Below are positions 51,001 through 63,000 of a DNA stretch of 64,000 nucleotides, in pieces (position 1 is the stretch's first letter; each line of letters begins with the position of its first letter). The position numbers are program-made. This DNA comes from a virus (taxonomy: Duplodnaviria > Heunggongvirae > Uroviricota > Caudoviricetes): the IMG/VR virus record IMGVR_UViG_2654588054_000003; one strand, given 5' to 3'.

Positions 51001-54000
51001 ACAGCGATGGCTCCACCGCGCATAAACCTGTAACAGAATACGGCAGTGCGCACCCTGATGATCAAACCGTGCTGGCGATACCCGTTGATAAGGCTATCGC
51101 TCAGGTCAGGGATCGCAGCAAATTTGCAGAGATATCGAAAAATTATGGTTATTTTATGCCGAAGCAGCAGGGACTTTCTCTGAAAGAGCTTCAGAAGGGG
51201 GCCAGCAACGTAGCGGCGGACGCGATTAAGAATGGCGGTAATGCTCAGGCTGCGGTGGATGAATATTATGCTGCGACTGGTTCACAACCGCATCAACAGA
51301 AAATTCAGCAACAAAAACTTCAGCAACAGGTTATCAACTGGGCGGGAGATGATCCTGATAAGCTGTCATTTGCCAGAAATGTAGCGGCCCGTCAGCCTGA
51401 AATGCTGGAACCTCAGAATCAGAAATTGCTGGAGAACGGGTATGCGAATTTTCTCCGTATTCAAAAGGCCAGGGGGGAACAGGCCAGAGATGAAAGTGCT
51501 TCATCTGCATCTCAGTTTATCCGTGGACTGAAACAGAATTACGCCCAGTAATTCACGATATTCCATTAATACCATTTCCTGATGCCCGGCCATTGTGCCG
51601 GGTTTTTTTATGGAGTCTGTATGGCCTATTCAGAGGAACAGCGTCCTGAGGCGCAACTCGGTAACCAGAATCGTAACAGCCTGAACATTCAGCAACCCGG
51701 CGAAACTGACAGCTATGAAGCATTTTTCTCTGATTCAAATCGCTGGAAGGATAACAGTACGTCGTTCAGCCTGGGCGATGTATTGCCAACAATGGGTAAA
51801 GGTTTCGCCCGGTCCGTCCGGGGAACAGGGGAAATGGCCCGTGGACTCGGTGATGCGATGATTCAGAGCCCGGTAAAAACAGGGGCGCGTATTTTAAATG
51901 AGTTCAGCCGTATGGGGCTGCCGGGTGTCGCAACTGTGCAGGATATTTTTGCCGGTGGCAGCAGGGGGGCTGATGAGGTCATCGATACCCTGCCTGATGG
52001 CAAAAACGCGGTTACAGATACTGTCGGTAAAGGTCTGAAGGTCACCGGTAAGGCTGTCAGTGACGGCGCTAAATCCTCGGATGAATGGCTGACCAGTAAG
52101 ATGTCTCCGGGTGCTCTGCGTGCGCTGAATACGCCGATGACCGAAGGCTATGATGATTCTGCGGTCTGGGTGGCGAAGGGCGTAAACCTGATTGGTGCCC
52201 TTGTACCTGATATGGTTGCTGGCGGTGTGGCTAAAAAGGTGGGTGATGTCACATTGCGAAAAACGCTGACCGCCGGGCTGGAGAAAAAATACATCGCGGC
52301 AGGGATGCAGCCGGAAAGAGCCACGGCACTGGCAGCAGAAGCTGTCGATAAAAAAATGCCGGATTTATTCCAGGCGGGCCTGATCACCCATTCCACAGCC
52401 AGTGCACAGGGGCAGAGTGCAATGGCGGCAGCAGATGCTGTTCTTAATGCGGATTACTCTGAGCTGGCGCAGTCACCGAAATTTCAGCAGACGTTTTTGT
52501 CCATTGACGCCGACCCGCAGCACGCACAGCTTACTGATCGCCAGAAAATGGATCTGGCAAAAGAGCGTGTTGCCGATGAGGTGCGCGCGCAGCTGGCAAC
52601 CGATCCTGAATTGCTGGCTGTGAATGCCATGGCGGCAAAACTGGGTGACGCACAACTGTTTAATCTGGTGACACGAGGCACAGCGAAGACCGTTAAAAGC
52701 GGCATTGTCAGAAATGCCACGGAACAGGGGGCGATTAATGCGGCGCAGGGCGGCTATTCACGCTATCAGGAAAACACGGCATTGCGTGAGACCGCCGGAA
52801 TGGATGTGTCACCGTGGGAGGGCGTGGCTGACGCAACGATCGAAGGTGCAGCCTTTGGTGCTGCGATGGGGGCTCCATCCGGTGCGGTTGCCGGATATCG
52901 TGGCAGACGTCAGGCCGCAGAAGAAGCAGCCATGCGTGATGCTGAAACCGTGCAGCAGGACGACGCAGCCCCGCAACCAGAATCTGTTGATCCGGTGGCG
53001 CAGCATCGTGAATCCATGCAGGGGATGAATCGCGAGCAGCTTCTGGAGCAGTATGCTGATGCGGATATGGCAACAGAGGGGGACGCATCCGCAGCTCATC
53101 GCCGGGAAGCTGCCAGCCAGTTGTTGAATGAACTGGACGAACAGGCGAAGCGACAGGCTGTGATGAATGAGCTGAAGGCGAAGCCGCGTTCTGAACTGCT
53201 TGAGGAATACCGCAGACTCAGCCAGAAAGAGGAGCGCACCGAGACTGAAGAACAACAGTTTCAGGCAATACGAGAAGTCATTCGTCCACAACAGGAAGTG
53301 ACGCCGGAAGCACAGTCACAGCCTGAAAATGCGGAGGATGGTAACGGGAGCATTTACCCGACGGTGCGGTTCCGGGACCCGAATGAAGTCCGCATTGAAA
53401 TTAACGGGAATGGTGCGTCCAGACCAGCGGAACGCATTGAAAAGGTGCGCCCGGACAACCGTTATTTCACGGATGAGAAAAGCGCCATGGGGAGTGATGT
53501 TTTCCGTAATGCCGCCGCCACCGGCCTGAAACCGTCCGTAGTGAAGAAAGGCGAGACTCAATATGCTGTTGAAATGGATAATCCTGCGTTCTCTGAAGAT
53601 GTGGCAACGGAAACCATTAACACCCTGGCTGACGGAGAGCGTATTGCTGATGCTGACCCGATGGAGCAGCCCGCGTTCATGCGTGACCCACGATTCCGTG
53701 GTTTCACGGGGGATGATACGGAGGTACAGGCCCGCCTTGCCCGTGGCAACGTGCCGACGGCAGAGGAGCTTGTACGTTCACAGATGGCTGAAGGTGATGC
53801 CGGTCCGACAGCACAGGAGTTAACTGAGCGTCCACGCCTGCCCGCTCCCGGCGATATTCATCCCGGACAGGGATATCCGTTACCGGGAGAGGTGGCGCGT
53901 ACGCCGGATGAGAATCAGGCAGGACGTGGTGGTCGTTTTACCACAACCGGTGAGGTTAAGGGCCAGAGTTTCCAGAAAGGACAAGCTCTGGCACCGGAAA

Positions 54001-60000: not shown

Positions 60001-63000
60001 AACAGAAATGGCCCCGTACGGAAGTGCGGGGCTAATGTGATTGGGGAGGGTGAGGATACCTGACACATCAGAGGTGGCGAGGGATTCCTCCCTTGCAGAG
60101 GTCTTTCTTCGTTATCAGTGCCGTCACAATGACGGTTAAACAGATGACGATCAGGGCGATTAACATCGCCTTTTGCTGCTTCATAGCCTGCTTCTCCTTG
60201 CCTTTCGGCACGTAAGAGGCTAACCTACGTTTGTGAAGCATAGATTGGGCCTCAGATTAATGTTAAGCGTCTTGCAGGACGCGTAATGTTAACTGGGGCT
60301 TTTCTCTGTCTGCCTTACGGTGGCATGCCCGAGGCAGATAGCCTCAAGCACCCGCAGCAATTCTACTTAACTCTCCTTTTCCCGCAAACCGTTTTTATCT
60401 CCAGCGACAAATCGAATACACAACCAGCACCACCGCCATTACTGTTCCTACATTTGCGAATGCTTCAGGCCAGGTCATTGATTCACCTTCTGCTCAATAT
60501 TTTTAAGGTCATTTTCCGCATACAGTATTGCAGTTCTTGCTGCCCGCAACCGTGCTTTGGTGTTCTTTTCTTCACGCTCGAGGCTGGCAACAGATTCTCG
60601 GAGCTGATCGTGTCTGTTATGAAGCTGTCTAATCTCTCTCACCACAGCCTCACCATCGTTCGCACACCGCAGAACATACTGAAAAGGGTCCACAACACAT
60701 CCGCACTGCAAGCACAGGATAACGTGATCCTGTTCATGAACCTCAATGGCCCGATGCTTACAGCTCTGTTGTGTGTAGTTTTTTCTGCCAGTTACTGTAA
60801 TGTTCAGCAGCTTCTCTTCATCGCGCTTTGGCTGCACCAGTGTGATGATATTATCGCCTTCATTTTCCATCAGTTCACCTCCTGCGGCGGTTCTGGTAGC
60901 GGCATCCAGTGTGACGGTTTCCACGACGTACCAGGAATTATCCACCCATCATTAGCGTCAGGATGCCCCGGGATGTAAGTCGCCCACTTCATTCGCCAGT
61001 CACCTTTCCTGTCAAACTCCACGGCAACAAGAACGGCTGTTTTGGTATCCGGCATTCGCTCACTACAACTTATCCAACCATCCGGAGTTACCGGAGAGTT
61101 GCCAGACAGCGCATTCTGCAACCGTTCCAGCTTAACGTATTCCTGAACCCTGTTTCCGTCGCACGCCTGAAGCCATTGCTCAGCCTTTTGCGCATCAGTG
61201 TGAAAGGCACAAGTGCGACCGTCATCAAATTGCATTTCGTAGAGGTTAGCAATCTGTTCAAACTGCGTGTGTGGCAACTTGTAAGTTTGGCTTACGAGTT
61301 CGGCTTCCAGTTCTGCTATGCGCTTCTCTGATGCTTCAAGTAACGCCTGCTTATCGCGTAGCGCTTCTTCCAGTTCAGCAACATGGCATTCACTATCAAT
61401 AAGGTTGTTCTCTGCTGCTCCCAGCTCAACTCTCAGCTTCCCAACCGTAAGCGCAATCTCCTCGTTCTCCTGGTCGCGGCGTTTGATGTATTGCTGGTTT
61501 CTTTCCCGTTCATCCAGCAGTTCCAGCACGGTAGCCGGGTTAGCCTCTGCTATGAATTCAGCGTTGCATAAGCCTGAGCATCTGTTTCAACCAGGCAGTT
61601 AACATGACATTCTGCAATCACGCCACCGGGTTCTCCTTTCCATTTTTGGCAAACAAAAACTCCTGTTAAATTGCCGTGCTGGTTAACAGATGTATGCCCT
61701 ACGATGTAGCTTCCTTTAGTTGCTTTCTCTGCCTTTTCACGCAGTGCCTGATAGTCAATCTTGCTCATTTTTCTCTTCACTCCGGTATACAAGGATTACT
61801 ACGCCCCCTCTGCTAATTGCGCGAGCTGGATCCCCTGGTTCCATGCCGTCAATACCGAAGGCTTCGAAAAATGCATCTATTGCCTTTTGGCGTTGCTCCT
61901 GCTTACGGCGTTTATTCCATTTTTTCATGAACAACAGTGACAGCCATCGTCCGCTGCAGAACATGATGTAGAAATAACCAAGGAGCGCTAGGCCGGTGTT
62001 CAGGGCTGTATCGATCGTTATCGTGGTGTTGATGTTCACTTCACACCTCTCTGTTTGTTGATAAGTTCAATATCCTGCTGGCAACTGGCGCAAGCTCTGC
62101 ATCCACGAACAGCCAGGCGTCGCCGCTCATCTATCGGATCGCCACACTCGCAACAATGAGTAGCAGATGGGGCATTACTATCGGATTTGTATTTTTGCAG
62201 GGAGAGATTGCGCTGCAATTCTTCGATTTCAGCGGCGTTGTCGATGATATCTGCCATTTTCCTTTCCTTCAGGCATGAAAAAAGGAGCCGAAGCTCCTTT
62301 GGTTTTAGAATTCGAATTGCCTTGCCCGCAGGCTTTTCAGCATTGGTCTGGCCCGCTGAACTACGAAACTCGACTGGTCAAGCCGTGCCGCCTCTCTCAG
62401 TAGCACATCTCTGTTCTTCGTCACCATGTAGATGGTCTCAAACGCAATGTCATACAGCTTGTTCGTGTATGAGGAGTTCAGCTCTTTCATGATCGGATAC
62501 AGGTGTTTGCTGAGGTCCTGGGCTTTTTCCATCCAGAGTTGCATGTAGCAGAGGAGGATGATTTCCTCGTCTGTGAATTGTTGCTGTGGTTCTGCTTGTG
62601 CCGACTGCATGTTGCGAAGTTTCTTTTCGCACTCGATGAAGTATCTGCGTATCTGTCGGCCTTTTTCGTTACGCTCTACCATCGCCGTTTCTTTGGCTGT
62701 ATCGAGGGTAAGGTGGTAGTCTTTTTTCCCTCGCCCATAACCTATTTCCCGTTTCTGGGAAATAGCTATATAGTCCTGATTTTCAACGAATCCGTACTCT
62801 TCAATACGTTCTGTAATCCACGATGCAAAGCGTTTACCTACTCCAAGAAAAGTATGTAAATCACGGGCATTAACGAGAAGAGTGGTTTCGTTGGCGATAG
62901 TGCCGTTGAATACGGGGATGAGTTGACTGGTCATGATGACCTCCTTATTTGTTTAGTTTATAACCGCCAGTTAGTAGCTGGCGGTCGGGTGTCAACTGAG

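Follow-up and report, generated by a model that had tools for sequence, protein, structure and literature searches.

A giant virion protein of short-tailed Shiga toxin phages contains two predicted zinc metalloprotease domains

The gene described here occupies positions 51621 to 60002 on the plus strand of the IMG/VR virus record IMGVR_UViG_2654588054_000003, a 64,000-nucleotide (nt) stretch of DNA (hereafter, the window) from a short-tailed Shiga toxin (Stx) phage of the Sepvirinae. It encodes a protein of 2793 amino acids (aa; 308 kDa, pI 7.5), a virion-internal “polyvalent” protein of a kind that has already been described in phages and conjugative elements, where a zincin-like metallopeptidase (MPTase) domain serves as the hub (Iyer, Burroughs, Anand, de Souza, and Aravind 2017, J Bacteriol, PMC5512222). 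The protein combines LPD5, CLCA_X/LPD1, a second MPTase, MuF_C/PBECR, and LPD38 domains, and its gene follows those for the tail and internal proteins, which is the composition and gene location of polyvalent proteins. We propose, as a reading that we consider evenly balanced between right and wrong, that this is an ejected polyvalent protein of short-tailed Stx phages whose two proteases would act after ejection, beginning with the processing of the protein itself.

Two HExxH motifs had been noticed in this open reading frame (ORF), and both are found at the exact nucleotides given for them, HEWFH at aa 1284 to 1288 (nt 55470 to 55484) and HEIIH at aa 1551 to 1555 (nt 56271 to 56285). Both are conserved in distant homologs and lie inside conserved predicted zinc-metalloprotease folds, in agreement with the suggestion of an enzymatic domain in the initial annotation. 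That annotation gave the correct coordinates of the ORF but a length of 2795 aa, two residues too many, and it missed both the nature of the product, a polyvalent protein with a PBECR RNase-fold domain and LPD modules, and the membership of the second motif in the HExxxH family.

The region from 51582 to 60002 is 99.7% identical to that of Shigella phage Ss-VASD, whose gp73 (labeled “LPD5 domain-containing protein” in RefSeq) is the ortholog of the giant protein, as are the 933W “LPD5 domain-containing protein” and gp47 of phage phi24B. At ≥90% identity, the gene is present in 186 phage records, including 933W, VT2-Sakai, P13374, and many other Stx-converting phages. It is the largest gene of the short-tailed Stx phages, the vehicles by which Shiga toxin genes are spread, and takes up 14% of the genome.

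Two predicted zincin domains

Zincin domain 1 (aa ∼1182 to 1440, positions 55164 to 55940, plus strand) was recognized by its NCBIfam match, residue conservation, and structural model. The NCBIfam CLCA_X profile (NF041907) matches aa 1182 to 1437 over profile positions 3 to 245 of 250 with an E value of 5.9e-44 and a score of 150 bits, which falls short of the curated cutoff of 260 bits; on sequence grounds, this is a domain homologous to CLCA_X without family-level membership. CLCA_X is a predicted metalloprotease family, mostly phage- or plasmid-borne, that is characterized by HExxH followed by Asp, is often found in very long proteins, and has as its sister family CLCA_N, the metalloprotease domain found in CLCA proteins (Lenart et al. 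2013, PLoS One, PMC3650047). Its HExxH-then-Asp signature is present in domain 1 as HEWFHSLD, ending at D1291. The match covers HEWFH and the Pfam LPD1 domain (aa 1361 to 1440, 55701 to 55940, plus strand) alike, and LPD1 can therefore be interpreted as the Glu-bearing C-terminal part of the catalytic domain. The LPD5 domain (Pfam PF18799, aa 1051 to 1200, 54771 to 55220, plus strand) was modeled jointly with domain 1 (aa 1040 to 1460), with a predicted template modeling score (pTM) of 0.80.

A protein homology search with aa 1196 to 1460 identified 408 homologs. Across 65 aligned homologs, His1263 (55407 to 55409), H1284, E1285, and H1288 (55470 to 55484), and Asp1291 (55491 to 55493) are each kept in at least 90% of the sequences; Glu1375 (55743 to 55745) is invariant, and E1382 is again kept in at least 90%. 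In the domain 1 model, HEWFH corresponds to residues 245 to 249, within the helix 243-258, and both Glu residues are found on the helix 334-352. The model shows the zincin core, with an N-terminal helix, a three-stranded sheet, and two C-terminal helices, and in structure comparison it matches neprilysin/PepO, thermolysin, and the botulinum light chains. As judged from the alignment, domain 1 fits exactly the phage-type MPTase clade, which is marked by a His that ends strand 2, an Asp three residues past HExxH, and a variable insert before the Glu helix (Iyer et al. 2017, PMC5512222).

Zincin domain 2 (aa ∼1476 to 1665, 56046 to 56615, plus strand) was delineated by homology, alignment, and an AlphaFold2 (AF2) model; its key residues are H1551-E-I-I-H1555-H1556 (56271 to 56288) and Glu1607 (56439 to 56441). 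A word-indexed homology search with this domain retrieved just 15 close fragments; an exhaustive search of representatives produced 398 matches with E values of ≤1e-3, including 112 at ≤1e-10, mostly in proteins of 1000 to 6000 aa. Among 122 aligned sequences, H1551 is conserved in 98% and E1552, H1555, and E1607 in 100%. The family motif is LRHE[IV][LIV]xHHGL, i.e., HExxxH, which is the only spacing present in 117 of these sequences. In the window protein and the two relatives nearest to it, one residue has been deleted and the motif reads HEIIHH, which fits both HExxH and HExxxH, so that the deletion in the Stx lineage re-creates the canonical HExxH. Atypical HEXXXH spacing marks one clade of the polyvalent MPTases (Iyer et al. 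2017, PMC5512222), to which domain 2 can be assigned from its homologs; the Stx lineage differs from this clade by the residue lost from the motif.

The AF2 model of domain 2 (predicted local distance difference test score, 80.8; pTM, 0.76) has a zincin fold with the conserved downstream Glu. It matches the N-domains of lethal factor and Certhrax, YbeY, M32 carboxypeptidases, and PepO, as well as Spartan, Wss1, minigluzincins, IrrE, and ArdC. Among viral models, Foldseek matched proteins labeled polyvalent or “structural” from numerous podophages, Escherichia coli phage PTXU04 being one of them; one weak match bears the label “internal virion protein D.” The two zincin domains show no significant similarity to each other in hhalign (E value of 0.052), so they are not recent duplicates of one another.

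Zincin folds are thus predicted around both motifs, and the outcome that would have counted against the initial annotation, no peptidase-like fold at either of them, was not obtained. Both domains are taken to be active because each keeps the full gluzincin signature, and they can be predicted to be catalytically competent zinc endopeptidases. The active sites are placed at E1285 and E1552, with H1284/H1288/E1375 and H1551/H1555/E1607, respectively, as the predicted metal ligands. It is highly improbable that the HExxH domains are dead structural remnants or that the motifs arose by chance. Neither motif region reaches the Pfam threshold and the active-site helix of domain 2 contains an indel, as such an explanation would have it; however, 0.037 HExxH motifs are expected by chance from the composition of the protein (P of two or more, ∼7e-4), the H, E, H, and downstream Glu residues vary little or not at all among the 65 and 122 divergent homologs, and the deletion in domain 2 re-creates the canonical HExxH spacing instead of wrecking the site.

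Pfam recognizes LPD5, LPD1, MuF_C, and LPD38 in the giant protein, and no Pfam match covers the HExxH helices (whole protein and eight segments, E values of ≤5); under relaxed settings, there is a faint near-match to Peptidase_M76 at the second motif (E value of 0.099). PHROGs matches are limited to families of unknown function and a “DarB-like” family across the LPD38 region. Sequence and profile searches of PDB found nothing meaningful, only matches to short-chain dehydrogenase, CnrR, Tfx, and low-complexity huntingtin.

Presence in the virion

Evidence on the location of the protein comes from phi24B, a sister Stx phage whose gp47 belongs to the same family and has identical motif peptides. 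It is among the fifteen virion proteins of this phage. In mass spectrometry (MS) of purified virions it is abundant, with the second-highest spectral count and 422 peptides that cover 93.6% of its sequence, and it has no density in the cryo-electron microscopy (cryo-EM) map; the authors propose that it is an ejection protein (bioRxiv 10.64898/2026.04.10.717836). The guess that the giant ORF encodes an ejection or internal-core protein is in line with these data. The tryptic peptides of phi24B virions include ones identical to the window sequence, among them both motif peptides, GNGPGALAHEWFHSLDNYFGR and HEIIHHAMEHVVTPAEYQTIIK. From the phi24B data, the number of gp47 copies per virion can be estimated at ∼19 (11 to 35, depending on the reference protein), or roughly 6 MDa of the giant product per virion (about 19 copies of 308 kDa). 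Its delivery into the cell with the DNA would be expected of such a protein.

In the gel analysis of phi24B virions, 62% of the gp47 peptide-spectrum matches (PSMs) come from the four uppermost slices, higher in the gel than the peak of the 80-kDa portal, in a sample that had been stored for six months; gp47 thus escapes extensive cleavage inside the capsid. The preprint gives the size of gp47 both as 2811 aa and as “>3,000” aa. In its MS supplement, HEIIHHAMEHVVTPAEYQTIIK appears with +16 oxidations assigned to His residues 1, 5, and 6, which correspond to H1551, H1555, and H1556. One explanation could be the metal-catalyzed oxidation of histidines that act as ligands, which gives no more than a hint of metal binding.

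The giant gene is preceded by genes for proteins of 217, 148, 83, and 421 aa (48911 to 51551, plus strand) that were matched to phi24B by gene order and product length. Their counterparts gp48, gp50, and gp51 are virion proteins without cryo-EM density, presumably internal proteins, which supports the earlier description of the giant ORF as lying after a set of small internal-protein genes. The 83-aa product (50024 to 50275, plus strand), encoded among them, is a glycine-zipper protein with a “bacteriocin” label in its relatives; its phi24B ortholog was detected by MS at trace level and was called a contaminant by the authors.

Conserved terminal modules and variable cargo

Domain architectures were compared across 148 distant proteins carrying domain 2, using single-sequence searches with segments of the giant protein. 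The N-terminal module (aa 1 to 450, 51621 to 52970, plus strand), which is rich in Ala, Gln, and Gly and has a glycine-zipper-like stretch at aa 406 to 433, was found at the N terminus of 38 of them. Parts of the conserved C-terminal module (aa 1881 to 2793, 57261 to 59999, plus strand), which includes LPD38 (aa 2476 to 2681, 59046 to 59663), were detected in 14 to 32 of these proteins, depending on the segment; domain 1 was present in 28 and the PBECR domain in 22. The N-terminal module, domain 2, and the C-terminal module form a recurring combination among these proteins.

Among cultured-phage records, tblastn detected the C-terminal module in 352, from Stx, Vibrio, Ralstonia, Burkholderia Bcep22-like, and Bacillus phages and the Methanosarcina virus MetMV. 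Domain 2 was found in 292 records (Stx and Vibrio phages) and domain 1 in 193 (almost exclusively Stx phages); neither protease domain was seen by tblastn in the Burkholderia and Ralstonia phage records. With this distribution, the terminal modules look like a conserved packaging/ejection chassis and the proteases look like exchangeable cargo. The MetMV sequence (MK170447.1, 41068 to 42423) is a full-length tblastn match to aa 2201 to 2700, with 31% identity and an E value of 1e-52, and comes from an archaeal virus, which gives the module an unexpectedly wide host range.

Possible roles of the two proteases

According to the mechanism that we favor, some 10 to 35 copies of the giant protein would be stored in the T=9 head and expelled through the tail together with the DNA. 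The conserved N-terminal module and the ∼900-aa C-terminal module that ends in LPD38 would form the packaging and ejection chassis, with variable cargo between them. In this phage, the cargo would comprise, in order, LPD5 with the CLCA_X-type zincin (HEWFHSLD ... E1375), the second zincin of the HExxxH clade (HEIIHH ... E1607), and the PBECR RNase-fold domain. Both proteases would be largely idle in the capsid and would act on protein substrates in the cell after ejection; the 308-kDa polypeptide itself would be the likeliest first substrate, to be cut into separately acting modules. The eukaryotic CLCA_N domain is a self-cleaving protease. The ORF, its motifs and their conservation, the predicted zincin folds, and the presence of the ortholog in virions are shown here or in phi24B. 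We infer ejection, catalytic activity, and self-processing, the last of which is favored because of the rationale given by Iyer et al. and the interspersion of the proteases between other domains.

Several observations weigh against this scenario. The gel profile of gp47 is broader than that of the portal protein, which could reflect processing, smearing, or decay in storage; no cleavage products or sites are known, and the phi24B supplement gives totals per peptide, from which fragments are not mappable. In the Bcep22-like and Ralstonia phages that share the C-terminal module, neither protease is detectable by tblastn, so the proteases are not obligatory ejection machinery. Solo LPD5-CLCA_X-LPD1 genes coding for 330 to 333 aa are found in early-type operons of small genes on phage contigs of 43 to 68 kb, divergent from the terminase, portal, and HK97 capsid genes of these HK97-like phages, and a complete 262-aa domain-2-like solo gene exists as well. 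An enzyme encoded on its own must find its substrate in another protein, which makes self-processing less convincing as the sole role. The metal-site assignment of both domains, finally, is itself a prediction.

Two of the solo genes, 10001 to 11002 in L003 (333 aa) and 10001 to 10993 in L007 (330 aa), both on metagenomic contigs, are located behind an HTH_17 gene and are divergent from the genes for the terminase, portal, S78 protease, and HK97 capsid. Given that solo forms exist, each protease module can be considered an autonomous unit able to act in trans.

The occurrence of the solo LPD5-CLCA_X-LPD1 genes in early operons apart from the virion genes, along with that of the solo domain-2-like gene, is consistent with a different role, in which the two zincin domains would be injected effector proteases directed at host proteins (defense systems, regulators, or repressors), with self-cleavage absent or incidental. 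This alternative seems less likely than not but is to be taken seriously. It agrees with the distribution of the proteases as variable cargo rather than chassis, with the mainly high-molecular-weight state of gp47 in virions, and with the closest structures, which include the host-directed or regulator-cleaving proteases lethal factor, the Pro-Pro endopeptidases (PPEP), IrrE/PprI, CapP, and ArdC. As such effectors, the two domains would be comparable to lethal factor, IrrE/ImmA, or the protease domain of ArdC. On the other hand, no candidate substrate is known, PADLOC has no match for the giant protein and shows no link to defense systems, and two different proteases interspersed among other domains is the arrangement that Iyer et al. 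tie to polyprotein processing, even though the same authors list an effector role as a possibility (Iyer et al. 2017, PMC5512222).

In its fullest form, a proposition that we regard as rather doubtful, the Stx virion would inject two ready-made zinc proteases, along with an RNase-fold domain, and the proteases would cut particular host proteins at the very start of infection. If so, the giant protein would be a capsid-delivered, toxin-like effector array and not a mere ejection scaffold, and the HExxxH-to-HExxH deletion could mean a changed active-site geometry or specificity.

The envelope has also been considered as the target. The phi24B preprint labels MuF-C a metallopeptidase and proposes that it degrades peptidoglycan (bioRxiv 10.64898/2026.04.10.717836), and the initial annotation likewise allowed for an attack on the cell envelope. 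The metallopeptidase domains would then cut peptidoglycan cross-links or envelope proteins so that the ejection conduit could cross the periplasm. An abundant virion-internal protein in a phage whose short tail must be extended would fit such a role, and the related giant protein of Bcep22/JC1 has an N-terminal lytic-transglycosylase domain, so envelope enzymes do occur in this class. Nevertheless, we find this role improbable. The “metallopeptidase” of the preprint, MuF_C (Pfam PF18819, aa 1750 to 1837, 56868 to 57131, plus strand), is a PBECR domain with a predicted RNase fold (Iyer et al. 2017, PMC5512222), and the true metallopeptidases are the two domains mapped here, which corrects a published misassignment. 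No lysozyme, transglycosylase, M15, or M23 domain was detected anywhere in the giant protein by Pfam and NCBIfam searches of the whole sequence and eight segments at E values of ≤5. The folds of the two domains resemble protein and peptide endopeptidases (MtfA, lethal factor, PPEP, and minigluzincins), and the solo homologs belong to early-type operons divergent from virion genes. Peptidoglycan peptidases are generally LAS-type enzymes that lack HExxH. Of the two targets named in the initial annotation, host proteins are a serious rival to self-processing, and the envelope, in the absence of a muralytic domain, is the least supported of all the options.

Gene start, remaining regions, and neighboring genes

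The earliest in-frame ATG of the ORF, at 51582, would extend the product to 2806 aa. We take the ATG at 51621 to be the credible start of the giant gene and the one at 51582 to be spurious: the former is preceded by a GGAG Shine-Dalgarno sequence and by a terminator-like hairpin, and RefSeq begins gp73 at the same codon. This GC-rich hairpin followed by a run of seven T residues (51584 to 51610, plus strand; hairpin, 51584 to 51603) resembles a strong intrinsic terminator, GCCCGGCC...GGCCGGGT plus T7, which ends 11 nt 5′ of the start codon and overlaps the ATG at 51582. The giant gene presumably relies on Q-antiterminated late transcription through this hairpin.

The long Ala/Gln-rich low-complexity stretches ascribed to the protein are confined to aa ∼220 to 520, where Ala plus Gln make up 28 to 35% of each 60-aa window, versus 15.5% of the whole protein. 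The linker region that follows the N-terminal module (aa 451 to 900, 52971 to 54320, plus strand) has a biased composition, is probably disordered, and matches no family in the scans. The whole protein is free of cysteine, which is unusual for 2793 aa and would suit a polypeptide that has to unfold in order to travel through the tail channel. No homologs of the known podovirus ejection proteins (T7 gp14, gp15, and gp16; P22 gp7, gp16, and gp20) were recognized through Pfam, PHROG, NCBIfam, or PDB sequences. Hydropathy analysis revealed no clear transmembrane helices that would suit a channel-forming role, just one weakly hydrophobic stretch at aa 181 to 199 (Kyte-Doolittle hydropathy of 1.38).

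Directly downstream of the giant gene is a hok/sok toxin-antitoxin locus on the minus strand, which consists of a sok antitoxin RNA (Rfam, 114 bits; 60179 to 60353) and a Hok/Gef family gene at about 60068 to 60184, placed via the corresponding Ss-VASD annotation. Further on, sRNA-Xcc1 is matched by Rfam at 62975 to 63063 (minus strand) with 69 bits at a gathering threshold of 53; the surrounding stretch of ead/Ea22-like, antirepressor, and TraR/DksA genes matches E. coli O157:H7 chromosomes with 100% identity.

Comparison with known systems

Much of what is reported here is largely known: the kind of protein, the CLCA_X family, the two clades of proteases, and the presence of this protein family in virions have all been published, and no new kind of system is revealed. 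The new details are modest and consist of exact active-site maps, the recognition of LPD1 as the Glu-bearing part of the CLCA_X protease, the HExxxH-to-HExxH deletion, and the MuF-C correction. The two HExxH domains, mapped here, are not mapped in the phi24B preprint, and the main text of Iyer et al. 2017 (PMC5512222) does not mention Stx or Shiga phages. The Pfam models derived from that work reach neither HExxH helix in this protein. The protease domains have no sequence-level match to any PDB chain, and their sequence identity to MtfA, anthrax lethal factor, Pro-Pro endopeptidases, minigluzincins, Spartan, Wss1, and IrrE is only 6 to 17%. Compared with CLCA_X as described, domain 1 differs in its fusion to LPD5 and in its location within a virion protein of 2793 aa.

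The N4 virion RNA polymerase (vRNAP) gp50 and the P1 proteins DdrB and DarB are similarly giant, capsid-packaged, and equipped with zincin MPTase domains, and they are delivered with the DNA; N4 vRNAP is packaged unprocessed, and P1 DdrB is processed (Iyer et al. 2017, PMC5512222). Unlike these proteins, the giant Stx protein has no RNA polymerase, helicase, or methylase, and hhalign comparison of domains 1 and 2 with the MPTase region of N4 vRNAP gave no significant similarity (probabilities of 0.6% and 4%).

Closer parallels are found among podophages. Bcep22 and JC1 encode portal and capsid homologs of 933W along with a virion-associated 4515-aa protein that has the same C-terminal LPD38 module and carries other cargo, namely a lytic transglycosylase, a methylase, and a helicase. 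The Bcep22/JC1 “DarB-like” proteins (gp69-gp75) and the LPD38 protein PTXU04_00025 are positional equivalents of the giant Stx protein, share the C-terminal LPD38 module, and are virion associated; the PTXU04 protein has a domain-2-like fold and is required for efficient infection. The general resemblance is to the polyvalent proteins of Iyer et al. 2017, which are likewise giant, multidomain, and encoded with virion genes, combine LPD5, LPD1, MuF-C/PBECR, and LPD38 domains, and have MPTases interspersed between the other domains, as is the case for the two predicted zincins of the Stx phage protein.

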